Below, one piece after another: positions 1,901 through 42,271 of a stretch of 64,000 bases of DNA. Every line of letters begins with the position of its first letter. Position 1 is the first letter of the stretch. A model generated the notes under the pieces. That model saw nothing but the letters and a program-made list of their open reading frames with translations. It was not told the DNA's origin and ran no database searches. The DNA comes from an uncultured delta proteobacterium. GTDB lineage: Bacteria; Myxococcota_A; Polyangia; Polyangiales; Polyangiaceae. The DNA is taken from positions 6,823,948-6,887,947 of the forward strand of contig CAWAIF010000003.1 in NCBI GenBank assembly GCA_963782055.1. The letters run 5' to 3'. A program made the translations under genes and the position numbers.

Positions 1901-3304
1901 TCAATCCGCGCCCTTGATGCTCGCCACCGGGTAGAGCCGCTTCGCGACGCGCGCGATCTCCTCCGCCTCCAGCACCGCGAGCACGGCGTCCAGGTCCTTG
2001 TAGACGTGCGCGCACTCGTCCAGCGGGATGTGCCGGTGGTTGCTGACGATGCCCTCGACGGTCACGCCGCCGAGCGTGCGCTTCACCGTCGCCATCTCCT
2101 GGTCGATGCGATCCTGCTTGTGCTCGAGCTGCCGCCGCGCCTTGCCCCGCGCCATCACCCGGCCGGAGCCGTGGTTGACCGAGCACGCGCTCGCGTACGC
2201 GTTGGCGTCGGCGAAGAGGATCGCCGCGCCCTCGTACATCGAGCCCGGGATGAGGCACGGGTGGCCGGTCTCCTCCCACGCGGTGCCCGCGAGGTCCGGG
2301 TGGCCCGCCGGGAAGGCCCGCGTCGCGCCCTTCCGGTGCACGAAGCCCCGTTGCGTCGTGCCATCCGGCAGCACCAGCGTCTCCTGCTGGACCAGGTTGT
2401 GGCTGATCTCGTAGTAGACCTCCACGTCGGCGCCGAAGACCTCCTGCGTCGCCTCCCGGATGCCGTTGACGATGACGTGCCGGTTGGCGACGGCGAAGTT
2501 CGCCGCGGAGTTGTGGTGGGCCCAGTACTCCTCGCCGAGCGGCTCGTCCGCCCGCAGCCACGACTCCTCCCGCCGGCTGGACGGCAGGCCCCGCAGCCGC
2601 GCGCCCTCGTAAAAGAAGTGGTTGGCGGTCTGCCAGCCGTAGCCCCGGCTGCCGCAGTGGACCATCACGTACACCTCTCCGGTGTCCCGGTCGCACTGCA
2701 TCTCGACGAAGTGGTTGCCGCCGCCGACGGAGCCGAGCTGCGGGAGCACGCTGGCGTACGCCTTCTGCACCTTGCGCAGGTCCGCGTCTTCCGGCACCGG
2801 GATGTACTGCCGCTCGCAGAGGTCGGCCGAGACGCCGAGCGCCTTGGCGCCGTGCCGCAAGATCTCCTCCGTCTGGCTCGCCTTGAACTTCGGCATGAGC
2901 TCCGGCCGGTGCCGGCCCTTGCCCGTCGCGATCCGCCGCTCCACCTCCCGCACCCACCGCTCCCGCGCGTACTTGCTCCGCACCGCGCCGGCGCCGAGGT
3001 CGGCCTTCATGGTGAGGATGCCGCAGGAGATGTCGTAGCCGGAGCCGCCCTGCAGGATGGTGTCGCTCGTGACGATGACCGAGCCGACCGGCACGCCGTA
3101 GCCGGTGTGCGTGTCGGGCATGAGGTACGCGCCGATGACGCCCTCGAAGCTGGCGCCGGCGTGGATCTGCTGCCACACCGTCTCCTCCGACGCCTCGTAG
3201 AGCGCCTCGGAGAGGAAGGCGTGCGCGTCCACCTTCATGGTCCCGGTCCTCGGGAGCACGTAGTGGTTCTCGGTCACCTTGGTGACGGCGTACTTGAGCG
3301 ACAT
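1901..3304 (-). CDS. rtcB: RNA-splicing ligase RtcB (3'-phosphate/5'-hydroxyl nucleic acid ligase)
   Basis: 467 aa. Conserved RtcB motifs are visible in the translation (GGNHF, MVHCGSRGYG, HNHA-like). Full-length family member. Confidence 0.93.
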   Translation of the reverse strand: MSLKYAVTKVTENHYVLPRTGTMKVDAHAFLSEALYEASEETVWQQIHAGASFEGVIGAYLMPDTHTGYGVPVGSVIVTSDTILQGGSGYDISCGILTMKADLGAGAVRSKYARERWVREVERRIATGKGRHRPELMPKFKASQTEEILRHGAKALGVSADLCERQYIPVPEDADLRKVQKAYASVLPQLGSVGGGNHFVEMQCDRDTGEVYVMVHCGSRGYGWQTANHFFYEGARLRGLPSSRREESWLRADEPLGEEYWAHHNSAANFAVANRHVIVNGIREATQEVFGADVEVYYEISHNLVQQETLVLPDGTTQRGFVHRKGATRAFPAGHPDLAGTAWEETGHPCLIPGSMYEGAAILFADANAYASACSVNHGSGRVMARGKARRQLEHKQDRIDQEMATVKRTLGGVTVEGIVSNHRHIPLDECAHVYKDLDAVLAVLEAEEIARVAKRLYPVASIKGAD

Positions 3305-3560
3305 GGCGTGGTCACCGACGGGGTGAGGCGAGCGTACCGGACATCGGTCCGCGGGAGGTCACGGCGTCGTCGGGCCCCGGGCACTGCGCATGCGAACCCG
3401 CATGATTCTTTGCGGAGGCACGCGTTCAGGAACGTAGCGGGCCCACACGCACCCCACTAAAGTGCAATCCATCGCCGTCGTGCGTTGACGAGCTGGAGTT
3501 CCTCCTCCAGGCTGCTCGGGCGAGGAGGGAGCCATGAGCAAGCAAGCATCCGGGCGGTGG
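3063..3560. repeat. Direct repeat copy 1 (~500 bp, ~92% identical to 5263..5765). Spans the rtcB 5' coding end plus its upstream region up to an ATG-(GCAA)2 tract.
   Basis: Direct alignment of the two stretches in the sequence. Divergence begins exactly at the GCAA tract on one side and inside rtcB codon ~80 on the other. Confidence 0.8.
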
Positions 3561-3700
3561 GAGCTGCCAGTAGCCTGCGCTCGCCGCGTCGGAACGGAGG
3601 CGGAGGTCTCGTAGGCGACGCGCACCACGTGGGGGATGGCGGCCATCGTTCAGGTTGAGGTCCGCGTTGGGCACCCTCTCCCGCATGAGCCACGCGAGAT

Positions 3701-3756
3701 CACTTTAGTGGTCTATTTTGTGGACGACGGCAAACATTTGGACCACTTTAGTGGTC
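3701..3756. promoter_or_regulatory. Two palindromic operator-like sites with core CACTTTAGTG. Site 1 is 3701-3710. Site 2 is the 16-bp palindrome GACCACTTTAGTGGTC at 3741-3756, which abuts the hipA-like ATG at 3758. The same 10-mer in inverse orientation (CACTAAAGTG) occurs at 3455-3464 and 5652-5661.
   Basis: Seen directly. Inverted-repeat arms CCACT/AGTGG separated by TT. Position overlaps the RBS/start of the downstream toxin gene, as is typical of HTH-antitoxin autoregulation. Confidence 0.45.
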
Positions 3757-3757
3757 C

Positions 3758-5020
3758 ATGCCTCGCTGTACGCTGGAAATATTCGTGGGGAAGCGCTGGG
3801 CGCGCGCGGGCGAGGTGCACGTCACCGACGAGGCGGCCGGCTACGCCGGTCCAGCCCGCTTCGAGTACGACTTCGACTACCTCGAGGGCCACGGGGATGC
3901 GCTCGGGGCCGTCGACGCGCGCGCGGTGTCGTGCCGCTATCCACTCGCTTACGACGTGCGCGACGAACCGCGCTGGCCCGCGTTCTTGCTCGACGTGATC
4001 CCGTCCGGCGCGGCGAGACGCTTCTGGGAGCGGGAGCTCGGGGTCGCGAACGTTGCTTCCTCCGACTGGGCCGTGCTCCTGCGCGGCGGGGGCAATCCGC
4101 CCGGTAACCTTCGCATCGCCGAGGCGGCGCCACCGCCACCCAGGGCGCACCGGGGCTTCGCCCGCGCAGACGTCGTGGCGCGGGCAGAGCGCTTTCTCGA
4201 GCACGCTCGCGCCCACGGTGCGGAGGTCGCCGGAGCCACCGGCGCGGGAGGCGACTCTCCCAAGCTGCTCTTGCGCGAAGATCGCACCGGGCGCTTCCAC
4301 GCCGACGGCGCGATCGACGACGCGGCGACACGCGCGCTCTGGCTCGTGAAGTTCCCGCGATCGCGCAAGGACGTGGACCGGCTCGTGCTGGAGACCGAAG
4401 CCGGGTACCACCGCGTCGCGCGGCGCTTCGGCGTGCGCGTGCACGCCGACCTCACCTGGGAGAGTGACTGCCTCTTCGTACCGCGCTTCGATCGGGTGCT
4501 CGAGGAAGACGGGGGGGTTCGCAGGCTCGGCCTGGAGAGTCTGTGCTCGCTCGCGGGGGTCTCCGACTTCGGGGTGCCGGTCACCAAGGAGGCGCAGGCG
4601 GAAGCGCTCGTGAAGTTCGCCTCGGATCCGGTAGAGGCGCTTCACGAATTCGTGCTCCGCGACGTGCTCAACGTCGCCCTCGGCAATACCGACAATCACG
4701 CGCGGAATACCGCGGTCCTCAAGGACGAGCGCGGCAGCGTCGCGCTGTCACCCCTCTACGATTTCGCCCCGATGCTCCTCGACTCCGAGGGCATCGTCCG
4801 CGTGTGCCGCTGGAGCGACGAGGTGGCCGGGTTCCCGCGCTGGACGGCGGCGCGCGAGGCGCTCGGTGAAGGCGGGATCAGCTGGCTGAGATCGATCGCC
4901 CATCGCGTGCGCACGCTGCCGCGGTGGCTGGACGAGGAGCGCGTCCCCCAGCGGGTTCGCGAGGCGGTGCTCCCGCGCATCGCGCGCGTCGCGCACGACC
5001 TGGAGGAGGGCACGAGGTGA
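3758..5020 (+). CDS. hipA: HipA-like Ser/Thr kinase toxin-family protein (HipA C-terminal kinase fold)
   Basis: 420 aa. Catalytic-loop-like motif NTDNHARNTAV (compare HipA GATDGHAKNFSV), LSPLYDFAPM (compare LTPFYDIISA), and an N-terminal LEIFVGKRWARAGEV coupling-domain-like start. Confidence 0.78.
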   Translation: MPRCTLEIFVGKRWARAGEVHVTDEAAGYAGPARFEYDFDYLEGHGDALGAVDARAVSCRYPLAYDVRDEPRWPAFLLDVIPSGAARRFWERELGVANVASSDWAVLLRGGGNPPGNLRIAEAAPPPPRAHRGFARADVVARAERFLEHARAHGAEVAGATGAGGDSPKLLLREDRTGRFHADGAIDDAATRALWLVKFPRSRKDVDRLVLETEAGYHRVARRFGVRVHADLTWESDCLFVPRFDRVLEEDGGVRRLGLESLCSLAGVSDFGVPVTKEAQAEALVKFASDPVEALHEFVLRDVLNVALGNTDNHARNTAVLKDERGSVALSPLYDFAPMLLDSEGIVRVCRWSDEVAGFPRWTAAREALGEGGISWLRSIAHRVRTLPRWLDEERVPQRVREAVLPRIARVAHDLEEGTR

Positions 5021-5280
5021 CCAAGGAGGAACGCGCGACGCTGCGCCGCGAGCTCTATGCCCGGATAGACCGCGGAGACATCGGGCTCGTGGAGGCCATC
5101 CGCACCATGCGCAGGATCGTCGGCAAGAGCCAGGTCGACTACGCGCGGCTCGTCGGGGTCAGCCCGCGCATCCTCAAGGAGATCGAGCGCGGCGTGGGGA
5201 ACCCGACAATGGAGACGCTCCGGAAGATCCTTCGTCCGTTCCGGCTCGACGTGGGCGTGCGCCGGGCGTCGTCACGATGA
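5017..5280 (+). CDS. XRE-family helix-turn-helix DNA-binding protein (HipB-like antitoxin candidate). Its GTG start overlaps the hipA-like stop (GTGA).
   Basis: VTKEERATLRRELYARI...QVDYARLVGVSPRILKEIERGVGNPTMETLRKIL is a typical XRE HTH. The 4-nt overlap suggests translational coupling. Gene order toxin-then-HTH is the reverse of canonical hipBA. Confidence 0.6.
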   Translation: MTKEERATLRRELYARIDRGDIGLVEAIRTMRRIVGKSQVDYARLVGVSPRILKEIERGVGNPTMETLRKILRPFRLDVGVRRASSR

Positions 5281-5506
5281 CCGAGCCGACCGGCACGCCG
5301 TAGCGGGTGTGGGTGTCGGGCATGAGGTACGCGCCGATGACGCCCTCGAAGCTGGCGCCGGCGTGGATCTGCTGCCACACCGTCTCCTCCGACGCCTCGG
5401 AGAGCGCCTCGGACAGGAAGGCGTGCGTGTCCACCTTCATGGTCCCGGTCCTCGGGAGCACGTAGTGGTTCTCGGTCACCTTGGTGACGGCGTACTGGAG
5501 CGACAT
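5174..5506 (-). pseudogene. Truncated duplicate of the rtcB 5' end (first ~80 codons only). Homology stops at the repeat boundary, after which the reading frame runs into unrelated sequence.
   Basis: MSLQYAVTKVTENHYVLPRTGTMKVDTHAF...GSVIVT matches the RtcB N-terminus at ~90%. Lies inside direct repeat copy 2. Confidence 0.7.
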
Positions 5507-5765
5507 GGCGAGGTCACCGACGGGTGAGGCGAAGATACCGGACACCGGTCCGCGGGAGGTCGCGGCGTTGTCGGCCCGCACACTGCGCATGCCAACCCGC
5601 ATGATTCTTTGCGGAGCCACATGTTCATGAGGGAGCGCGCCCACACCCGCCCACTAAAGTGCAATCCATCGACCGCCGTGCGTTGACAAGCTAGAGTTCC
5701 TCCCCCAGGCTGCTCGGGCGAGGAGGGAGCCATGAGCAAGCAAGCAAGCAAGCAAGCAAGCGCAA
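5263..5765. repeat. Direct repeat copy 2 of the rtcB 5'/promoter segment (partner of 3063..3560). The GCAA tract at its end is expanded to 6 units.
   Basis: Sequence alignment to 3063..3560. Confidence 0.8.
5736..5759 (+). repeat. Tetranucleotide microsatellite (GCAA)6. It lies immediately after an SD-preceded ATG (5732-5734) and upstream of an out-of-frame lipoprotein signal peptide.
   Basis: Seen directly. GGAGGgagccATGa then GCAAx6. The duplicated copy at 3538-3545 has only 2 units. Confidence 0.9.
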
Positions 5766-5792
5766 TCTTCGGGCCTTCGACGCCGCACGCTC

Positions 5793-7667
5793 TTGAGCGC
5801 GCTCGTCGCGGTCTGCGGCACGTCGATGCTCGGCTGGACCTGCGGTGACCCACCCGTCCGGCTCGGAGGCAACGACCTGATCTTCGGTACGCAAGCGCCG
5901 GGGAGCGGCGCGGGCAGCGTGGCGCGCTTGCAGCTCGGCTCGTCCGCGCCTTTCGACCACTGGGACTACCGCGGCGACGCGCTCATCGCCAACGCGGCGA
6001 ACAGCGGTGACCCGGCGAACGAACCGCTCGACCCGTTCGACTTGCCCGCGTACCCCATCGACGGAACGGGGCCCGGAGGCAACCTGAACGTCGAGTACGT
6101 CTTGCAGCACGCATTCTGGGTCACGCGGCAGGGGCGGCATGGGTCCGTCGATCTCGCCGACCAGCACGAGATCATGCTCTTCGCGCGCGATCCCCAGGAG
6201 CAGGCGGAGACGATGCGGAGCTTCGTCGGGAACTACGCGGACGCGGGTACGGCGATCCAGTTCTTCCCGGGCGACTGGGGCAACCTCTGGAACGTGGCCG
6301 CCGTCCCGCTTCCCCGTGGGTTCGTGTACCCTCCCAGCGCCAACTACAACCTCGGCACGCTCGACGAACCGCTACCCGTTCCGCTGACCTTCCCCCTGGT
6401 CGACAAGGCCATCTTCTGGCCGAACTACGTCCCGGTGGGGCCGGGCACGGAGCCCGATGGGCACTCCTCGGTCAAGGCGGTGAAGATCATCAACCGCGGT
6501 CTCTGCGGCAGGGAGCTGCCGTACTACACCGGCGATCCGGACAACCCCGGCATCCTCGAGACCGTGGTGGCCGAGGCCGCTCCGGCGATCGCCGGAGGCA
6601 TCGTCAACGCGGACTGTCACGCCGACGTCACCGTACCCTGGTCGCAGGCCGGCTCCTTCATCGACTTCACCACGGAGCGGGAGGATCGCCAACTCGGAGG
6701 CTTCTTCTTCAACATGGCCGAGAGGTCGTCCGGGTACCTCGGCGTGCAGAGCAAGGTCCTGGCCCGGGCCGCCATCCGGTTCGAGCTCTTCGACGGCCGA
6801 CTCTCCTCGGAAGGCGAGATGGTCCACACCAACGCCGCCGGCGGCCTCGGCGAGGCCGGCGGACTCGTGAGCGACAAGGTCGTCGTCGCCGTGTCCAACG
6901 TCCTCACGAGGGCGATGGACGCACCGCTTCCCACGAACGCCGAGCCAGAGACCCTCGCGGAGACGATTTACCGCGCGTCGGGCGACCTGCAGGGCTACGC
7001 GGGCAGCGACGGGTACAACAAGGCGAAGAAGAAGTTCAACATCGACACCGTGACCGGTCAAACCCGTGTCGATCTGGACGCGACCGGAGGGGACGACTCG
7101 GTGCCGCCGACCACGGCCGACCTGTCCGCGACGCGCTGTGCGGTGTTCGTGGATAGCTTTCGTCACCAGCTCAAGCAGGGCGACCTGCCGGTCGTTGCCC
7201 CCATCCTCGGCCTGACCCCGGCGGAGCGGCAGCAGGTGTGGGACGCGAAGCTCAACGAGACCGAGGTCCGGAACGGCAAGACCGTGCTCAAGAACTTCCG
7301 CTGCGTCCACAGACCCGACAATCCGAAGGACCAGGACCCCAACGAAGGGATCTGCGAGTACGTCGTCCGCGCGAAACGGGTCAACGTCTTTCCCGACGGT
7401 GTGGAGCTGGTCCTGCTCGACGACCTCAAGGACATCAACCAGGCGGCTTATCCGGTGTGGGTCCACGCGATGGCTGCGCAGCTCACCGGGACGGCCGACG
7501 CGCTGAGCAACGTCTGCGATCCACCCCGGTCCCAGGGCGCGACATACACCTTTCGCCCTTTCGTGAGCCCCTTCAAGCTCACCAGCCACGGGGACCGCCA
7601 CTTCCGCTGCGCGGACTCCTGCACGGCGTTTCTCCCGGACTTCTGCTCCCATGTCGAAGAGTACTGA
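5793..7667 (+). CDS. Large secreted lipoprotein of unknown function. The track start (TTG 5793) falls inside the signal-peptide hydrophobic core; the functional start is probably ATG 5732, which requires a change in the GCAA tract length.
   Basis: In the main frame the upstream sequence encodes ...SGLRRRTLLSALVAVCG (n-region RRR, h-region, lipobox AVCG). It contains no ATG/GTG/TTG between a TGA at 5733-5735 and 5793. High third-position GC through 7667. Confidence 0.65.
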   Translation: MSALVAVCGTSMLGWTCGDPPVRLGGNDLIFGTQAPGSGAGSVARLQLGSSAPFDHWDYRGDALIANAANSGDPANEPLDPFDLPAYPIDGTGPGGNLNVEYVLQHAFWVTRQGRHGSVDLADQHEIMLFARDPQEQAETMRSFVGNYADAGTAIQFFPGDWGNLWNVAAVPLPRGFVYPPSANYNLGTLDEPLPVPLTFPLVDKAIFWPNYVPVGPGTEPDGHSSVKAVKIINRGLCGRELPYYTGDPDNPGILETVVAEAAPAIAGGIVNADCHADVTVPWSQAGSFIDFTTEREDRQLGGFFFNMAERSSGYLGVQSKVLARAAIRFELFDGRLSSEGEMVHTNAAGGLGEAGGLVSDKVVVAVSNVLTRAMDAPLPTNAEPETLAETIYRASGDLQGYAGSDGYNKAKKKFNIDTVTGQTRVDLDATGGDDSVPPTTADLSATRCAVFVDSFRHQLKQGDLPVVAPILGLTPAERQQVWDAKLNETEVRNGKTVLKNFRCVHRPDNPKDQDPNEGICEYVVRAKRVNVFPDGVELVLLDDLKDINQAAYPVWVHAMAAQLTGTADALSNVCDPPRSQGATYTFRPFVSPFKLTSHGDRHFRCADSCTAFLPDFCSHVEEY

Positions 7668-8493
7668 GGTCCGGCCGAAGGCGGGCCGACGGCTCGAAGG
7701 GCGCACAGTGACCGAGCTGGGACGAACACGCATCAATCATGTCGCGGCGCTACTAGTCGTACCCATGCTCGTGATCGCGGCGTGCGGAGGAGAGATCACG
7801 GACAATGGCCAGGACGGGGGAGCAGACACCGGTCTAGCTGGTGATGGCTCGGGCACGGACGCCGGCTACACCCAGTGTGTTGCGCCCAACGACGACTCGC
7901 TGTGTGGTGGCCAGTGCTCGGATGTCTGCGCATCCGGCTTTCCCTGCCTGAAGGACACGCAAGAAGTCTTGGGTCTGTGTCCGCGAAAGGGGGCGCACCT
8001 CGGGGGCGACTGTACTCGCTGCGCAGACGGCTACCTGTGTACCGACCGTACTACCCTCACCGATCCAGCCGGCGCATACTGCGCCGACGAGGAGTACGGC
8101 GTACTCCTTGCCATGAACGGGAAGAGCGACTGGGTCCGCTACTCCGACCGCGCGGCCTACACCGGCGCGCCGATCCCGCCGCCTCCCACCACCTGCCCCG
8201 ACGTCCCAGGCCTCCACCTCTGCGGCGGGGCCTGCGGTGACTGCCCGAGCGGGTGGTTCTGCATCGGCCGCTCGCCCATGCACCCCATCAGCCTGTGCTT
8301 CCCGCCAGGGGCCAACAGCCAGGGTCCCTACTCGTGCTCCAAGCCGGGACCTTGTGACATCATCGGACAGCACTGCTTCACCTTCAAGGTGGACAGCGCA
8401 TCGCAAGCCATCGCGGACGCGAACGGTCTGTGCGTGACGGACGCGCAGTGCCCGCTCGCCGCGCAGTACCCCGGGGGCGGGAGCTGCCAGTAG
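7651..8493 (+). CDS. Cys-rich secreted lipoprotein. Paralog of 29075..29950 with a shared C-terminal motif FTFKV..SQ.IADANG.C....QLPGGG.C.
   Basis: Signal peptide with lipobox LVIAACGG. 28 Cys. Paralogy seen directly. Confidence 0.62.
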   Translation: MSKSTEVRPKAGRRLEGRTVTELGRTRINHVAALLVVPMLVIAACGGEITDNGQDGGADTGLAGDGSGTDAGYTQCVAPNDDSLCGGQCSDVCASGFPCLKDTQEVLGLCPRKGAHLGGDCTRCADGYLCTDRTTLTDPAGAYCADEEYGVLLAMNGKSDWVRYSDRAAYTGAPIPPPPTTCPDVPGLHLCGGACGDCPSGWFCIGRSPMHPISLCFPPGANSQGPYSCSKPGPCDIIGQHCFTFKVDSASQAIADANGLCVTDAQCPLAAQYPGGGSCQ

Positions 8494-9073: not shown

Positions 9074-10093
9074 TCACCTCGGGAGACGCCACATCATACC
9101 AAAAGCGGCCATATAATGCTGGTTGTTTGCCCAATACACATATTCATCGTCCACGACCACTTCCGAGGCGGACTGGCCCGTGGCGAGAACCTGGCGGTCG
9201 CGGCACGTCGGCAGTGCGCACTTCTCCACCGTGGAGTCACCGAGCCCTCCCGTGGCCCAGTACATGGACGAGCCGTCGATCGCGAACGTCGCCCCTGTCG
9301 CGTCGAGCAAGACGGGCGGTCCGGCGCATCCGGTGAGGGGACACTTCTGGATGTCTCCGTTCGTCCAGTAGACGTCACCGCCGGCGACGACGATGGCGAT
9401 GATCTCCCGGTCCGTCGAAGCGAACGCCCTCGTCGTGCTCGCGCAATCGGATTTCTGACACGTCATCAGCGCGTCCGACGTGCCCCAGAAGAGGGAGTCC
9501 GCACCCATGGCGATCGCAAACGGGGAGGCCTGGCCGCCGGCGAGCAGGGTGGGCTGATTTCCGCAGCCTCCGATGTCACAGCGCATGACGGTGCCCTTCG
9601 TACGCTCCGTCCAGTAGACGCTGGCCGCGTCGACCACGATACGCTCCGGGGCGATGGAACCGGAGACGAGGGTGGTCGGCGTCGCGCAGCCGGCGAGGGA
9701 GCACTTCTCGATGGCCCCGGGCGCAGGTGGGAGGGGCGATCGGGACCAGTAGACGTTGGCGCCGTCGACGGCCAGGTCGGTCGGCGAATCCTCGGTTGCG
9801 ATCGTCTGAGGCTGGCAGTCATCCTTGGCGCAGGCGAAGACAGTGCCGCCGTACTCGATCCAGTGAAGACTGGTGGCGTCGACGACGAGCCGCGCCACCG
9901 AACCGGATGACGCCGAGGATGCGAGGTACGTCGGCGGCTGGAGGGACCAGCACTCGCCCTCCGCGCACGAAAGCCCGGCGGCACACGTGCCGCCCTCGAA
10001 ACAGGCTTCGCCCTGCTGTCCCGTGCTCGCCGGCTGCGCAGACTCGCCGCAGCCAGCGAGGAGCAGCGCGATCAGGATCCCTCGCGTCCCCAT
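9074..10093 (-). CDS. Lipoprotein with VYW / YWTD-like beta-propeller repeats. Intact paralog of 922..1779.
   Basis: MGTRGILIALLLAGCG signal with lipobox. Repeated ..SVYWT.. motifs. Full C-terminus ...YVYWANNQ. Confidence 0.7.
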   Translation of the reverse strand: MGTRGILIALLLAGCGESAQPASTGQQGEACFEGGTCAAGLSCAEGECWSLQPPTYLASSASSGSVARLVVDATSLHWIEYGGTVFACAKDDCQPQTIATEDSPTDLAVDGANVYWSRSPLPPAPGAIEKCSLAGCATPTTLVSGSIAPERIVVDAASVYWTERTKGTVMRCDIGGCGNQPTLLAGGQASPFAIAMGADSLFWGTSDALMTCQKSDCASTTRAFASTDREIIAIVVAGGDVYWTNGDIQKCPLTGCAGPPVLLDATGATFAIDGSSMYWATGGLGDSTVEKCALPTCRDRQVLATGQSASEVVVDDEYVYWANNQHYMAAFGMMWRLPR

Positions 10094-10225
10094 GAAGAGG
10101 GAGTGTACCGCCTTCAAGCGCGGTCTTCTACCGAGGCTTCGGCGGCGCGATTGCCGTCTGATGGACGTCAACCAATCTTGCAGGTGAGCGACGACAACTT
10201 GCAGGTCGGTGCACGGCTCCCAGAG

Positions 10226-28238: not shown

Positions 28239-29084
28239 CTACGGAACTAGGGACCCGAAGCGGTCGTAGCACTCCAGCCCGACCGGGCCACGCAGCTTCT
28301 TGCAGTCTTCCAGGCTCATGCACGCTGCCGCATACCGCTTCGCGACCGCGTCGCTGCCGTCCCCGTTCCTGTAGACGGCGCATGCCCAGTTGTCGGGGTA
28401 GTACGGATCGCACCAGACGGTGGGCAGTCCTCCGGTGGCCGGGAGGCTGCACGTGCGAATGGCATCGGGCGATCCGTTCAGCGTGCCCTCGCAGAACCCG
28501 AATCGTCGCGTCGCGGAGCGACCGCTGCACACCGCCGCGGGTTGGCCGCACTTCCCGCAAGCGCCGCCGCAGAGCGGGCCGAAGAGCGATGTAGGACACG
28601 GCTCGCCGGACGAGTCGAGTGGCCGATCGTCGTAGGGCGTCTTGTCGGCGTACCGGCACACGTCGCGCACACCGATCTGGAACAGCGCGTGGCAGACGTC
28701 GAGCGGCACGCACACCAGGTCGCCGTTGGGCCGCGTGATGCACGCGTCGCCGTCGTCGCACGCGAAGCACGGATACCGCCCCTGGTCCTGAAGGTCCGCC
28801 AGACAAATCCCTCCGCTCGCCGGCGCGCCCGAGTCGATGTCCGCGCTCCGCTGACACCCGTAGCCGGGGCACACCGGGGCCGGCAGCTCCGGACAGGGTG
28901 GGTCTCCGCCGCAGAGCCGGACTCCGCTTGCGGACACACACTGCGGGTGGTCGGCGAACCCGCCGTCCACGGCGCCCTGGCCCCCGTCCAGTCCGTGCAT
29001 CGAGGGGTCCCCGAGATCGCTGCGGGCGCCGCAGCCAACCGTGGCGGCAGCGAGTGCGAGAGCGAGACCTCTCGCTAGTTGCAC
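28239..29084 (-). CDS. Cys-rich secreted lipoprotein (different Cys spacing from the 7651 family)
   Basis: GTG start giving VQLARGLALALAAATVGCG (lipobox). ~30 Cys. The track start at 29216 would overlap the upstream gene and was rejected. Confidence 0.5.
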   Translation of the reverse strand: MQLARGLALALAAATVGCGARSDLGDPSMHGLDGGQGAVDGGFADHPQCVSASGVRLCGGDPPCPELPAPVCPGYGCQRSADIDSGAPASGGICLADLQDQGRYPCFACDDGDACITRPNGDLVCVPLDVCHALFQIGVRDVCRYADKTPYDDRPLDSSGEPCPTSLFGPLCGGACGKCGQPAAVCSGRSATRRFGFCEGTLNGSPDAIRTCSLPATGGLPTVWCDPYYPDNWACAVYRNGDGSDAVAKRYAAACMSLEDCKKLRGPVGLECYDRFGSLVP

Positions 29085-29950
29085 GCCCCGCCCCCCGGGA
29101 GCTGGGCGGCGAGCGCCTGACACGTGGCCGATGGCAAGCAGACGCCATTGGCGTCTGCGATGGACTGCGACTGCGGCGTGACCTTGAAGGTGAAGCACGC
29201 GTCGCCCCCGCTGCATGGCGGCTGGCCGGCACCGCAGATGCTATTCACCGTGGTGGCCGCGCAGAAGCCGACGGGGTGCAGGGGCGCGCGCCCGATGCAG
29301 TGCTGCCCGGTATCACACCCGCCGCAGTTCCCGCCGCACACCTGGACACCCGGGATCGAGGGGCACATGGACGGATTGGGTGGCGTGTCGCCGGTGAACA
29401 GATCGCGGTCGTAGTAGGTGACGTCTAGGTCGGCGGAGGCGTCCGGGTCGGCGCGGTAGAGCAGCTCACCCAGCTCGAAGGGAAAACACATCAGGCCCTT
29501 GAGTGGCTGGTGATAGCCACTCGGCACACACAGGTCGCCATCGTTACAATTGAGGCATCCGGTCACGCCGAAGGAATAGGCCGCGAGGGCCTTGTTGTAG
29601 CAGATTTGGACCGGCGCCGAGGCATCGCACCCCGAAAGGCAAGCCGTTGGAGGATCGCAGCCCCCGCCGCAGATGGCATATCCGCTCGGCGACATGCAAC
29701 GCGAGTAGCCCGCGTCGTCGACCGGGCCGGCGTCGATCACGTCCGGCGCAGCGTCGGGGCGTCCGGCCTCCGGGCCCTCGTCGACGGTGCCCCCGCAGGC
29801 GGCGAGCACCCAAAGCAGCGCGGGAAGCCACCGGAGCGTCACTGGCACTGCCCGTTCGTCGGGTTGGTCGCTGGCGGCGTACACCCGCTCGTGTTCCCCT
29901 GCGTGCAGATGGGCTGGACGCAGGCACGTGTATCGCAATCGACTGCGCAC
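29075..29950 (-). CDS. Cys-rich secreted lipoprotein, paralog of 7651..8493
   Basis: Shared C-terminal block ..CFTFKVTPQSQSIADANGVCLPSATCQALAAQLPGGGACN. Signal peptide/lipobox LLWVLAACGG. Confidence 0.6.
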   Translation of the reverse strand: MRSRLRYTCLRPAHLHAGEHERVYAASDQPDERAVPVTLRWLPALLWVLAACGGTVDEGPEAGRPDAAPDVIDAGPVDDAGYSRCMSPSGYAICGGGCDPPTACLSGCDASAPVQICYNKALAAYSFGVTGCLNCNDGDLCVPSGYHQPLKGLMCFPFELGELLYRADPDASADLDVTYYDRDLFTGDTPPNPSMCPSIPGVQVCGGNCGGCDTGQHCIGRAPLHPVGFCAATTVNSICGAGQPPCSGGDACFTFKVTPQSQSIADANGVCLPSATCQALAAQLPGGGACN

Positions 29951-31611
29951 GGCCCCGCAGGAGTCTCACTGCTAGGACAGGTGGCCGGGCCGCCATTCTT
30001 GAACGCCCAGTCCTCGTTGTAGAAGTTGGCCAGATCGATGCCGGCATCGACGAGCGGCGCTCGCCTGGCGGTGCAGATCTTGGTGAACCAGTCCGTCCGC
30101 GTGAAGTCGACGTGTCCGAGTGGTGGCGCGTCCGTCATGAACGAGGCGTAGAACAAGGCGAGCGCCGGGTTGTTGATCTCGTCCAGACGATCGAAGAGCA
30201 CAGCCTCTGCCGCCTGCGGCCGGTAGTTCAGCCGCTTCATCGGGACGATGATCTCGCAGCGCCCGTGATGCGGGTTGACGCACGCGTTGCTCCGGTCGAC
30301 GGAGCTGGGGAAGGGCACGCAACCCCAGTGCACGAGGTGCCCCCCGGACGTCGCCATGATGGTCTCCGCGAGAGTATTGGCGTCGCTGGCTGCCATGCCG
30401 AACTCCTTTGCACCCTCGCTTGCGGTGTCTCTCACCGTCTTCGCCGCGGCTTTGCATTGCTCGCTCGGGTCCGCGGGGCACGTGTAGTTCGGGTCGCCCT
30501 TGACGGGATCGCACGCAAAGAGCGTGTCACGAGCCGAGTCGGAGAAGTCGTCCAGTTTGGGGTACATCTGCAGCGCCTGCGCCGTATCGTGAATCTGCCG
30601 CGGGATGTCGTCCGTCAGCGCGGACGTGAGCGTGTTGGAAAGTCCCGGGATGTCGACGAAGTACGGGGGGAAGATCACGTGGACGCCGTTGCACGCCCGT
30701 GTCGGCTGATCATCCAGCGTGCTCGGAAAGGCGTTGCCATGGCCATCCACGCCCGCAGGACCCCCGCCGAAGCTCGATTCAGCCGCCACGACGCCGTCGG
30801 AGCCCACGAAGAGGCGGAAGGCGCTCGAGAACGCCGCGTCGCATTTCTCATCTGGCCCGGGATTCACACCCTGGGTCACGTCAAGCAGTTCGAGCGCCAC
30901 GTTCGAGATCTGCAGCCTGACGTCACCGTTCATCACGAAGCCTCCTCGCAGGTCCTGCACCCGTCCCTGCGTGTGGGCGATGAACGAGGCGAAGTTGTCG
31001 TATGCGAGCGTCAAGGACGAGAGCGAGTCCGTGGTGAAGCACGCAGCCCCGTGGTTCGTGAACAGGCTTCCCCGGAGCCCCGTGTCGATCTGCGCGAACA
31101 GATCCGCGTATGCGAACTCCTGCGAGCATCCGCCAGCCTGCGAGAGGTAGGCGCTCCGGATCGTGCCCGAGTTGTTCGGCGAGTTGAAGTCGCCAGGCGT
31201 AAGGTGCAGCTCGGTCGGTGTGGGGCCGAAGGGTTGAGTCGTCGCCGGTAGGACCACACCGGGCGGCTGCTTCCGCGTCAAGCCGAGCCAGAAGAACTCC
31301 GCGGCCGTTCTGGTGAGCGCCTCGAAGCGATCCTCGAAGTCGATCGAGAAGATGTGCGCTTCGTAGGGGTTCACCAGCAGGGCCGAATCGAACGGATCGG
31401 CCAGGATGAATGCCGGAAGAGGGTCGTTCTCGTCGCTCCCGCGCAGGCGTGCGTGCACGGGAAACAATGTGGTGCCGCCGTGGAAGGAGTCGATGTATAG
31501 GCTCCTCGCCGGCACGCTCGCGAGCTCTCCGCAGGTCGTATACGTGTTGGGGCATCCCGTCGTGCCCCACGCGTACGTTTGCGGGGCGTACGTCAACCCG
31601 GGGATGATCAA
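29839..31611 (-). CDS. Secreted protein of unknown function. The frame is open upstream through a heptanucleotide SSR to an out-of-frame ATG at ~31852; the track start (TTG 31611) is probably not the real start.
   Basis: Upstream of 31611 the main frame encodes ..(LVARRSS)n LLLAVSAVTCNPSPPAGDHTYTFEILVDGAGATGGSGTQLVAFHSAGLKEL, which is signal-peptide-like, with no start codon. Confidence 0.65.
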   Translation of the reverse strand: MIIPGLTYAPQTYAWGTTGCPNTYTTCGELASVPARSLYIDSFHGGTTLFPVHARLRGSDENDPLPAFILADPFDSALLVNPYEAHIFSIDFEDRFEALTRTAAEFFWLGLTRKQPPGVVLPATTQPFGPTPTELHLTPGDFNSPNNSGTIRSAYLSQAGGCSQEFAYADLFAQIDTGLRGSLFTNHGAACFTTDSLSSLTLAYDNFASFIAHTQGRVQDLRGGFVMNGDVRLQISNVALELLDVTQGVNPGPDEKCDAAFSSAFRLFVGSDGVVAAESSFGGGPAGVDGHGNAFPSTLDDQPTRACNGVHVIFPPYFVDIPGLSNTLTSALTDDIPRQIHDTAQALQMYPKLDDFSDSARDTLFACDPVKGDPNYTCPADPSEQCKAAAKTVRDTASEGAKEFGMAASDANTLAETIMATSGGHLVHWGCVPFPSSVDRSNACVNPHHGRCEIIVPMKRLNYRPQAAEAVLFDRLDEINNPALALFYASFMTDAPPLGHVDFTRTDWFTKICTARRAPLVDAGIDLANFYNEDWAFKNGGPATCPSSETPAGPCAVDCDTRACVQPICTQGNTSGCTPPATNPTNGQCQ

Positions 31612-31763
31612 CTCCTTCAGCCCCGCGGAGTGGAACGCAACGAGTTGCGTCCCGGAGCCGCCCGTCGCACCGGCGCCATCAACGAGGATCTCGAAGGTGT
31701 ACGTATGGTCGCCTGCCGGTGGACTCGGGTTGCAGGTGACCGCACTGACAGCGAGGAGCAGGG

Positions 31764-31847
31764 CGACGAGCGACGAGCGACGAGCGACGAGCGACGAGCG
31801 ACGAGCGACGAGCGACGAGCGACGAGCGACGAGCGACGAGCGACATG
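31764..31847 (-). repeat. Heptanucleotide microsatellite (CGACGAG)~12 on the plus strand, (CTCGTCG)n on the coding strand. It lies directly after ATGTCG, and the ATG is out of frame with the downstream signal peptide.
   Basis: Seen directly. All three frames of the tract encode the same (LVARRSS)n heptad. Copy number is 12 by my reading (+/-1). Frame relation is derived from the track ORF phases. Confidence 0.85.
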
Positions 31848-36322: not shown

Positions 36323-36394
36323 CGGAGAAGGAGAGGAGGGGCCCCGCCCCGCCCATGCTCGGGCACGTGCTCGCTCGCGCGCGCGCCGGCCGGG

Positions 36395-40401: not shown

Positions 40402-41733
40402 TCAGTGGCACGCGCCGTCCACGCAGGTCTGCCCAGACCCACAGCATGCCCCATCGACGACACACGACGCCGGGCAGCAATCCTGAGCGCCACCTGGTAG
40501 CGTCATGCACGGTCCGCCGCAGCAGTGTCCCCCGCAAAGCCGTGCGCCGCCGTTGCCGCCGGAGATCGTGATGTTGCAGCACGTCTGGTCGGTGGTCGCG
40601 CAGACGGAACCAGGGAAGCAGCACTCGCCGCCGCACTGTGTCGCGGCGGCTGGACAGGTGCAGGTCCCGTCCGGGTTGCAGACATTTCCGCCCGTGCAGC
40701 ACGTCGTCGTCCCGTTCGCCGGGTTGGGACACACGTCCGCCGGGCCGCAGCACGTGTCGGTCTTCGCGTCGCAGGGCTGACCCTCCGGGCAGCACACCGT
40801 TCCGCCATTGCACGCCCGGTCGTTGGGGCAGCAGGTGCTGTCCGCCTCCGAGGTGCACGTTTCGGTGCCGCTATCGCAGCAGTTCTGGTTGCAGCTCGTC
40901 GTACCGCCCGGACAGCAAAGATGCTGCGCTTCGCTCGAGCATGTCGAGCCGTAGTCGCAACAGAAGTGGCCTTGACCCTCGACGCCGCACGGAACGGGGC
41001 AGCAGCCGAACTGGTTCCCGAGCTCGTTGCACTGGTCGTTGCAAACGTTGTCGGCGAGCACCGCGGCGACGATGACGACCGCGAGGCAGACAGCGAGCGG
41101 AATGCCGAAGAACTGTCCGTCCCAGACGGCCGCGCAGGTGACCAATCCCAAGAATACCGCCAAGGAGGCGCCCACCGTGCACTGCAGGTGGCAATTCCGG
41201 CAATTCTCCCCATCCTGCGGGTACTCCGGCTGCGCGGGAACCGACGACACTGACGAACCGTCAGCCGCCACGCACGTGCCCGACGACAGCACCTCCTGCA
41301 AGTGCTTGTAGGTGTCCAGGATGTGCTGCGACGCAGGTGCCACCCCCGCGTCGAAGGGCGTCCCGTCGGCGAAGTGCACCGTGCTCGCGTCGGCGTCCTT
41401 CGGAAAGGGCGCGAGCGGCTTGCCGTCGACGTCGCCGGTGACGACGGTGTCGCCGCGGAGCAGGTGGATGACGTGCTGCTCCTGCCCGCTGTACGCCGGG
41501 CCCTGCTTCACCGTCTCGCTCCAGCCCTGCGGGGTGGAGACGGCGGTCGCGTCGAACGCCAGCGACCCGTCGACGACGAGCCGCATCTCGGTCGACGTGG
41601 GCGACATGTCCATGTCGAGCTCGTTCGCGCCGTCGGTGACGGTGCGATGCCAGCCGCCATCGCTGGCCGTCGCGGTACACAGCGGCACCGAGGAGGACGG
41701 CGAATCGCTCGAGCAGCTGAGGACGCCGAGCAC
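40402..41733 (-). CDS. Membrane-anchored protein with an extremely Cys-rich C-terminal domain (CC/CCP/CCG clusters, ~60 Cys in 200 aa). The functional start is probably the ATG at 41806 beyond a pentanucleotide SSR.
   Basis: Upstream of the GTG at 41733 the main frame encodes ..PRARSVLAASGALLVLGVLSC (signal/lipobox-like) with no start codon. Two internal hydrophobic helices, then a C-rich tail. Confidence 0.62.
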   Translation of the reverse strand: MLGVLSCSSDSPSSSVPLCTATASDGGWHRTVTDGANELDMDMSPTSTEMRLVVDGSLAFDATAVSTPQGWSETVKQGPAYSGQEQHVIHLLRGDTVVTGDVDGKPLAPFPKDADASTVHFADGTPFDAGVAPASQHILDTYKHLQEVLSSGTCVAADGSSVSSVPAQPEYPQDGENCRNCHLQCTVGASLAVFLGLVTCAAVWDGQFFGIPLAVCLAVVIVAAVLADNVCNDQCNELGNQFGCCPVPCGVEGQGHFCCDYGSTCSSEAQHLCCPGGTTSCNQNCCDSGTETCTSEADSTCCPNDRACNGGTVCCPEGQPCDAKTDTCCGPADVCPNPANGTTTCCTGGNVCNPDGTCTCPAAATQCGGECCFPGSVCATTDQTCCNITISGGNGGARLCGGHCCGGPCMTLPGGAQDCCPASCVVDGACCGSGQTCVDGACH

Positions 41734-41770
41734 GAGGAGCGCTCCGGATGCAGCTAGGACACTACGGGCA

Positions 41771-41800
41771 CGAGGCGAGGCGAGGCGAGGCGAGGCGAGG
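41771..41800 (-). repeat. Pentanucleotide microsatellite (CGAGG)6 on the plus strand, (CCTCG)6 on the coding strand. It lies directly after ATGTCG (ATG 41806..41804), and the ATG is out of frame with the downstream signal peptide. A G9/C9 homopolymer lies 25-33 nt upstream, at 41830-41838.
   Basis: Seen directly. Copy number is confirmed by two independent track translations (MSPRLASPRLASCP, DVASPRLASPRLVPVVS). A main-frame TGA overlaps the ATG. Confidence 0.9.
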
Positions 41801-42271
41801 CGACATCACGTTTCCCCTTTCGTGACACGCCCCCCCCCGGTGGCGACGCGTGAACGCCATCCTCGGCCTGTCCACCTCCGAAGACAAGGCACGAAGGCAA
41901 GCCATCAAAGAATGAGTAGGAGGTCGTCGCACACGCGCGCGCTCCTGCCGAACTGGTGTCCGCGCCGTCCGCGCCACCACGCCCCGGCCTCGCGGCGCGG
42001 GATGGACCGCAGCTCATTCCATTGTAATGATCGACGGATGGCCCTCGGTCGACACCTGCAGCTCGCCGCGACTGCCGCGTTCCTCGTGGGGTGTGGCGGG
42101 ATCGTCGCCGCGCCTCCCGATGCCGGTGCAGGCGCCGCCGCGCGAGGCTCGGGGTTCGCCCTCGGGGTGACGCGCTGACGACGGCGCGCCCGGTTCTGGC
42201 CATCCCCGGATCAGCGCGCGCGAACGACGATCGGGCGGGCACCCGCCGGCAATCTCCGGCGACGAGAGTGC

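Follow-up and report, generated by a model that had tools for sequence, protein, structure and literature searches.

A tetranucleotide tract in the signal peptide region of a lipoprotein gene as a likely phase-variation switch in a Polyangiaceae bacterium

Introduction

Phase variation driven by repeats is generally taught as a feature of host-bound pathogens with small genomes. The present work concerns a perfect tetranucleotide tract directly after the start codon of an envelope-lipoprotein gene (gene A), which appears to form an operon with a second lipoprotein gene (gene B), in a 64,000-nucleotide stretch of DNA from an uncultured delta proteobacterium of the Polyangiaceae (GenBank assembly GCA_963782055.1, contig CAWAIF010000003.1, positions 6,823,948 to 6,887,947 of the forward strand). 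This whole stretch is referred to as the window and, unless another locus is named, positions are counted from its first letter. The tract is likely to be a slipped-strand contingency switch on the A+B operon.

Tetranucleotide contingency loci of Haemophilus influenzae include lic1A with (CAAT)n and lex2A with (GCAA)n, and Theiss and Wise (1997; listed in PMC3711429) reportedly described a localized frameshift in a Mycoplasma surface lipoprotein. The Haemophilus loci are established as a class (PMC2651432). In Neisseria a (CTCTT)n repeat in the leader-peptide coding region drives phase variation of the Opa proteins (PMC3960869), and in Neisseria gonorrhoeae poly-G in the signal-peptide region of PilC1 and PilC2 gives translational on/off control (PMC13190605). 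The one phase-variation phenomenon known in myxobacteria is the yellow/tan variation of Myxococcus xanthus (PMC3986340). For myxobacteria, literature searches brought up no phase variation mediated by repeats, in keeping with an initial annotation of this DNA, made from the letters alone, whose author was not aware of such a layout in high-GC Myxococcales. Enrichment of repeats at N-termini has been tied to phase variation mainly in pathogens (PMC3315296) and a 2025 review regards species with multiple loci as uncommon and points to bacteria of soil and ocean as a gap still to be explored (PMC11868660).

The start region of gene A

As stated in the initial annotation, an ATG with GGAGG as a Shine-Dalgarno (SD) sequence 5 nt upstream is followed immediately by (GCAA)6 (Table 1), and this was confirmed by direct reading and by Tandem Repeats Finder (TRF), which reported (AGCA)6.8 with 100% matches over 27 nt. 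The long frame encoding A is open from the TGA overlapping this ATG to 7667, comprises 634 codons and lies at +1 relative to the ATG. The earliest ATG, GTG or TTG in the long frame is the TTG at 5793, within the hydrophobic core of the signal peptide and without an SD sequence, with no in-frame alternative start before it that would bypass the tract. The annotation had described the same frame relation, the TGA overlap and the lack of a start codon before a TTG.

The tract translates to a cyclic SKQA peptide in all three frames, corresponding to the (QASK)n peptide noted earlier. When its length was altered in silico, 2, 5 or 8 GCAA units gave a 639-647-aa protein with the N-terminus MSKQASKQAQSSGLRRRTLLSALVAVCGTSMLGWTCGDPPVR and other lengths gave only 18-42 codons. 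The prediction that 5 or 8 units would join the ATG to the signal peptide and mature protein was thus borne out, with 2 units having the same effect. That the present allele is one unit from ON was dropped as evidence, since every OFF tract whose unit length is no multiple of 3 has this property.

The possibility of chance was addressed with 200 first-order Markov simulations of the window (G+C 70.6%), in which the longest perfect run of period 4, 5, 7 or 8 was recorded. The simulated maxima were 15-23 nt versus observed runs of 27, 33 and 82 nt at this locus and the two described below, all three lying beyond 200 of 200 simulations. A sigma-70 scan upstream of the ATG at 5732 found no promoter.

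Further repeat loci in the window

Only three long perfect non-triplet repeats are present in the window, none occurring elsewhere in its genes, and all three directly follow an SD-ATG and precede a signal peptide that has a lipobox-type Cys and is out of frame. The second is a heptamer tract, read on the + strand as (GCGACGA)11.7 at 31763-31844, whose - strand gene in silico yields a 666- or 673-aa protein with 10 or 13 units, bearing the signal LLLAVSAVTC (frame 645-673 aa). The third, a pentamer tract read on the + strand as (CGAGG)6.6 at 41771-41803, yields with 4 or 7 units a 464- or 469-aa protein bearing the signal RARSVLAASGALLVLGVLSC (frame 459-479 aa). Neither the heptamer nor the pentamer gene has an accepted Pfam or NCBIfam match, and the pentamer gene was rejected as a member of the A family, having no similarity to A. 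The SKQA, SLVARRS and SPRLA repeat peptides are basic or polar and stop-free, a composition that, as judged from sequence, suits the n-region of a signal peptide.

Two other low-complexity runs were noted. A C9 run on the + strand at 41830-41838 (G9 on the gene strand) lies ~24-32 nt upstream of the pentamer gene ATG at 41806, within the 5′ untranslated region or the promoter, and may represent another mutable tract of that gene. At 36341-36354 a (GCCCC)2.8 repeat of low copy number occupies the spacer from the SD sequence GGAGAGGAGG to an ATG, where a change in length would alter the SD-ATG spacing.

Table 1. Coordinates of the features described in the window.
Feature	Position	Strand	Basis or remark
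Older copy of 5′ module: first 79 rtcB codons, intergenic region, SD, ATG 3534-3536, (AGCA)3 3537-3548	3067-3548	+	Direct repeat of 5269-5746
HipA-like kinase gene	3758-5020		HipA_C 5e-28
HTH_3/XRE gene	4924-5280		7e-10; 3′ end runs into duplicated rtcB fragment
SD sequence GGAGG	5722-5726	+	Read directly; 5-nt spacer to ATG
Gene A start codon ATG	5732-5734	+	Overlapped by TGA 5733-5735, which bounds the long frame on the 5′ side
Short frame of the OFF state, 38 codons, stop TGA 5846-5848	5732-5848	+	Translation
Perfect tract (AGCA)6.75, readable as (GCAA)6 over 5736-5759	5735-5761	+	TRF
Rest of signal peptide: n-region AQSSGLRRR, h-region TLLSALVAVCGTSMLGW, lipobox-like GWTC, Cys codon 5841-5843	5762-5843	+	Translation of +1 frame; homolog alignment
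Mature lipoprotein A, unnamed family	5841-7667	+	No Pfam or NCBIfam model
Gene B, 280-aa Cys-rich lipoprotein, lipobox VIAAC	7651-8493	+	Overlaps 3′ end of A by 17 nt
B-type partner of heptamer gene	29075-29950	-	38% identical to B
Heptamer gene body, distant A-superfamily member with shared C-terminal domain	29839-31762	-	blastp 5e-7 versus A; P0059-type homolog
Heptamer locus: ATG 31846-31844, then (TCGTCGC)11.7, SLVARRS repeats, OFF	31763-31846	-	TRF; translation
Pentamer gene body, Cys-rich secreted or lipoprotein, unrelated to A	40402-41770	-	Translation; blastp; Pfam
Pentamer locus: ATG 41806-41804, then (TCGCC)6.6, SPRLA repeats, OFF	41771-41806	-	TRF; translation

Repeats and length variation at homologous loci

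A survey of relatives for a repeat after the ATG had been suggested in the initial annotation. Fourteen A-type loci, including the two window genes, were read as DNA. In 11 of them the signal-peptide region contains a repeat, and L002, L030 and L031 have none. The unit differs between loci, with six types in the A family (AGCA, GCCA, TCGCC, TCTCG, TCGTCGC and poly-G). The frame is ON in L003 with (TCGCC)4.4, at the locus of L007 and L011 with (TCGCC)6.8, and in L029 with G11. It is OFF in the window genes with (AGCA)6.75 and (TCGTCGC)11, in L015 with (TCGCC)4.6, in L027 with (TCGCC)8, in L026 with (TCTCG)4, in L028 with (GCCA)7 encoding an SQPA peptide, in L004 with G8 and in L024/L025 with G9. 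A suitable number of units in silico restored a 600-685-aa lipoprotein with a proper signal at every repeat locus. That different units occupy one site across relatives argues for selection for mutability and not for a given peptide.

Natural length variation is seen at the (TCGCC)n locus of L007 and L011, which is shared with L019, an OFF allele with (TCGCC)7.8. L011 and L019, from different metagenome samples, are identical over 250 of 250 nt upstream and 899 of 900 nt downstream of the tract and differ by one TCGCC unit, L011 having 30 nt (n=6, ON) versus 35 nt in L019 (n=7, OFF). A one-unit ON/OFF polymorphism thus exists in nature at a homologous locus. The initial annotation had described the layout at gene A as that of slipped-strand phase variation, apparently OFF, and this description gains support from the two further window loci, from the repeats in 11 of the 14 A-type loci and from this polymorphism.

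The closest analogue of the window tract is (GCCA)7 of L028, which comes from a Myxococcales MAG (metagenome-assembled genome). The hexamer GCGCAA lies directly 3′ of both tetranucleotide tracts (window 5760-5766; L028 584-590), and as such the two may derive from one ancestral tract whose unit was altered by one base.

Several observations on individual relatives are recorded here. In L002, which encodes the closest homolog of A (P0004, 42% identity), the region 229-300 holds an upstream ATG frame, MMAKITRRAAMVR followed by a stop, that is n-region-like and does not share the frame of the called start MTVLALGVAVSGVGATC, perhaps through a frameshift or an assembly error. The ON allele of L001/L011 is truncated, its product having 303 aa, and 340 nt past the stop a Transposase_mut (IS256-type) gene is called (L001 1629-2843); the L007 allele of the same (TCGCC)n homolog is full length at 676 aa. 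The family members of (TCGCC)n type, L003, L007, L010, L015, L020 and L027, have a conserved leader in common ~110 nt upstream of the ATG, in which a small hairpin GGAGC..GCTCC is followed by CGACAAAGGGGAnnnCGGG-ATG; a similar ACGAAAGGGGAAACGTG-ATG is present at the pentamer gene of the window, which is unrelated.

Of 18 metagenome matches to ATG(TCGCC)4, 10 (L006, L008, L009, L012, L013, L016, L017 and L021-L023, nine being given as low-GC contigs and some having a G+C of 0.49-0.54) were rejected as coming from unrelated organisms with no signal-peptide context, and two from high-GC contigs, L014 and L018, were set aside for want of a lipoprotein context. Contigs of 0.38-0.54 G+C that carry ATG(TCGCC)n outside a lipoprotein context (L009, L012, L016, L017 and L022; L006 and L008) form two groups of near-identical loci with 4 versus 6 and 4 versus 5 units, which is ordinary microsatellite variation in unrelated organisms.

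The products of genes A and B

The database copy of A is a 613-aa singleton called from the ATG at 5826 on a contig of 7,003,164 bp and has no signal peptide. Pfam and NCBIfam scans of A gave no family match, and a word-indexed homology search with either the single sequence or the family alignment as query returned gene A itself only. An exhaustive HMMER search found 113 homologs at E<=1e-3, the best with 42% identity (E = 2.5e-105), and the homolog alignment covers the full length of A with 29 invariant columns. The relatives in named genomes belong to metagenome-assembled genomes (MAGs) labelled Polyangiaceae, Myxococcales or 'delta proteobacterium', and the family as a whole is known from Myxococcota MAGs and metagenomes. 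The G+C content at third codon positions (GC3) of gene A is 0.89. A structure model of A has a predicted local distance difference test (pLDDT) score of 75.8; a prediction from the single sequence, with a pLDDT of 31, was not usable.

The homologs begin with lipoprotein signals and have the Cys immediately before GNPPVR, at which aligned position their lipoboxes read LAGC, VAAC, LSGC and VFAC. Conserved in the family are C-x-GNPPVR after the lipobox, continuing as GNPPVR..G..L.FG, and at the C-terminus CEY..AKRLNV.PD..ELVF.DD. Since the homologs share C-x-GNPPVR at this point, the lipidated Cys of A is probably the second one, that of GWTC preceding GDPPVR. The signal of A has a basic n-region (RRR) and a hydrophobic core; GWTC at the homologous Cys departs from the [LVI][ASTVI][GAS]C consensus. 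Of the lipoprotein signal described in the initial annotation the n-region and core were found, but the RRRTLLSALVAVCG cited there would belong within the signal peptide, the Cys in ...ALVAVCG probably not being the lipidated one, and the lipobox is non-canonical. As the homologs place the lipobox Cys just before GNPPVR, the signal peptide of A is predicted to lie upstream of the annotated ATG at 5826, and by this comparison the true start must be the out-of-frame SD-ATG. In some A-type proteins (P0068, P0092 and P0057) the C-terminus, made up of Gly/Cys motif, hydrophobic helix and Arg-rich tail, resembles the MYXO-CTERM sorting signal, and in two of the three the called protein runs on into a B-type domain, either as an A-B fusion or as a read-through call.

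Gene B has no accepted Pfam or NCBIfam family, the sole match being VlpC_Nterm at 19.4 bits versus a 160-bit cut-off. A B-like gene lies downstream of A in L003, L004, L005, L007, L015, L024-L028 and L031, and the order A then B is kept in every related locus with enough sequence. By gene order and homology, A+B can be regarded as an unnamed two-gene lipoprotein operon family of Myxococcota. A third B-like Cys-rich protein of 325 aa is encoded at 28239-29216 (- strand), directly downstream of the B-type partner in the heptamer cassette, and is ~29-30% identical to the other Bs.

The upstream duplicate and neighbouring elements

The 5′ module of gene A is preceded in the window by an older copy, in which the ATG at 3534-3536 is followed by AGCAAGCAAGCA at 3537-3548. 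The two copies form a direct repeat of ~480 bp whose homology stops inside the tract (3548 and 5746, respectively). Because the homology ends exactly within the tract, the 2-3 units of the upstream copy are best read as a rearrangement junction and not as a sign of slippage, the rearrangement being perhaps promoted by the repeat itself. Of the claim made earlier for an upstream copy at 3534-3545, the duplication is thus real; its short tract was dropped as proof of slippage or mutability.

The direct repeats bracket a 1.7-kb segment (3549-5268) in which the HipA-like and HTH_3 genes, with the kinase gene coming first, resemble a toxin-antitoxin pair. Four copies of the 10-mer CACTTTAGTG are present in the window (3455-3464, 3701-3710, 3744-3753 and 5652-5661) against 0.01 expected. 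Two are just upstream of the hipA-like ATG at 3758, where the palindrome GGACCACTTTAGTGGTCC at 3740-3757 contains one of the two, and each copy of the rtcB/gene A intergenic region contains one, that of gene A lying ~70-80 nt upstream of the ATG at 5732. A shared operator is one possible reading of the 10-mer, and a vestige of the rearrangement is another. In addition, two paralogous lipoprotein genes (922-1893 and 9074-10171, - strand) with the lipobox LLAGC, repeated ..VYW.. motifs and no Pfam match flank the region from rtcB to A+B; they lie 8.3 kb apart and share a 300-nt stretch that is 93% identical.

Discussion

At gene A ribosomes would initiate at the SD-ATG at 5732 and translate the (AGCA)n tract. 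With a unit of 4 nt, one tract length in three would be ON, 2, 5 or 8 GCAA units linking the ATG to the signal peptide and a mature protein of 600 aa. At n=6 translation would end after 38 codons, and as a result no exportable lipoprotein would be made. Slippage during replication would add or remove units and so provide a heritable and reversible on/off switch. The tract would lie in the n-region of the signal peptide, where it would encode a stop-free, basic polar SKQA peptide in any frame, and since the signal peptide is cleaved off the mature protein would be unaffected by tract length. Gene B would probably fall with A through lost translational coupling or polarity, making its co-regulation likely. 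The suggested benefit is heterogeneity within the population in a surface or envelope component that faces phage, prey or kin recognition.

A number of points weigh against such a switch. The organism is represented by a single assembly on record, and so by one tract length at 5735-5761. All three window loci are OFF, which is also compatible with decay, and the tally of states over the repeat loci (three ON, eight OFF, plus the OFF allele L019) is biased by the choice of four OFF relatives for their called N-termini without a signal peptide. In Haemophilus the switching rate rises with tract length, and six tetranucleotide units are a short tract at which switching could be slow. The lipobox of A is non-canonical and the poly-G differences between MAGs could be assembly errors.

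If the n-region merely tolerates insertions, repeats could expand neutrally there and the frameshifts would be the one-way inactivation of dispensable genes, that is, pseudogenes in the making. In keeping with this, along with the OFF state of the window loci, a transposase insertion also interrupts the homolog L001/L011, the matches of L015 and L019 to A are split into two segments, and the upstream copy (3067-3548) is a defunct remnant. Such decay is nonetheless unlikely, as each OFF gene is otherwise intact, with a single break at the tract, strong coding bias (GC3 of the 0.89-0.98 type) and homologs that align over the full length, and ON alleles exist in L003, L007/L011 and L029. Moreover, the tracts are perfect, and non-triplet units, which would be expected to be purged from needed genes, recur at one site as six unit types across relatives with no long repeats elsewhere in the window genes. 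Taken together, the varied units at one site, the lack of long repeats in other window genes and the intact OFF genes argue for selection for switchability over neutral expansion and decay.

Two further explanations dispense with an OFF state at gene A. It is very unlikely that the n=6 allele is expressed anyway, by a start at the TTG at 5793 or the ATG at 5826, by re-initiation after the 38-codon frame, or by ribosomal or transcriptional frameshifting, with the tract tuning expression. The product from the TTG, MSALVAVCGTSMLGWTC, retains most of the hydrophobic core and the short-frame stop at 5846-5848 is near the ATG at 5826; however, neither start is preceded by an SD-like sequence, the 5826 product has no signal peptide and the 5793 product has no basic n-region as found in homologs. 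Frameshifting or transcript slippage is not known to occur at tetranucleotide repeats. An assembly or sequencing error, with 5 or 8 units in the actual tract and hence an in-frame gene, is also very unlikely. Repeats are error-prone, above all the poly-G tracts in MAGs (L004, L024), but for three tracts with 4-, 5- and 7-nt units all to be wrong by whole units would be an unusual type of error, L024 and L025 from two samples both have G9, and L011 and L019 show two clean lengths in contigs that otherwise agree. Were several lengths to coexist in the population at the tract, that in itself would amount to phase variation.

As such, a contingency switch at 5735-5761 is the probable reading, and its mechanism is a known one, of the Opa/PilC type and the Haemophilus tetranucleotide type, with the lineage and the gene family being new. 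As in Opa, a non-triplet repeat lies within the signal-peptide coding region of an envelope protein, the number of units sets the frame, the repeat-encoded segment is lost with the leader and several paralogs per genome each have their own tract. The likeness is in mechanism only, since the A, heptamer and pentamer genes have no Pfam match of any kind, the Opacity family included. The Opa proteins are outer-membrane beta-barrels of a pathogen with a small genome and restricted to its host, whereas the genes described here encode lipoproteins in a ~7-Mb, 70% GC, Myxococcota-like genome. The Opa tract lies in the hydrophobic core, unlike the window tract in the n-region directly after the ATG, and units of 1, 4, 5 and 7 nt occur within the one A family. 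The poly-G members of this family (L004, L024/25 and L029) are close to PilC in having the tract just before the lipobox, although the protein family and organism differ and the window tracts have multi-nucleotide units.

The resemblance to the Haemophilus loci lies in a tetranucleotide tract near the 5′ end that sets the frame, in the many loci per genome and in the unit of lex2A, which is the identical GCAA. The Haemophilus loci encode cytoplasmic lipopolysaccharide-modifying enzymes of a low-GC commensal or pathogen, in contrast to exported lipoproteins in an operon. Likewise, the variable surface lipoproteins of Mycoplasma share on/off control by frameshift in a short repeat near the 5′ end, yet these belong to wall-less, low-GC, host-bound bacteria, mostly involve homopolymer or promoter tracts and have no homology to A. 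The yellow/tan variation of M. xanthus is a colony-level phenomenon for which no repeat-tract mechanism is described and is unrelated to the A family.

The findings flag a systematic annotation error, in which such genes are called from internal starts and lose their signal peptide, and they draw attention to A+B as an uncharacterised envelope system, on whose variable expression phage, prey or kin recognition probably exert strong and fluctuating selection. Three candidate switches lie within 64 kb of a ~7-Mb genome of 70% GC, and natural ON and OFF alleles of a soil Myxococcota lipoprotein operon family are already visible in metagenomes. With repeats recurring and both kinds of allele visible, the use of contingency loci by free-living social or predatory bacteria is therefore directly testable. 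On balance, the evidence leans slightly towards a phasome in soil, Polyangia-like Myxococcota in which many envelope-lipoprotein operons are gated by hypermutable repeats in the n-region or core of the signal peptide, with units of 1, 4, 5 and 7 nt acquired independently in paralogs and orthologs. If this is true, stochastic surface variation would be a normal strategy among free-living predatory bacteria with large, high-GC genomes, extending beyond small-genome, host-adapted pathogens.

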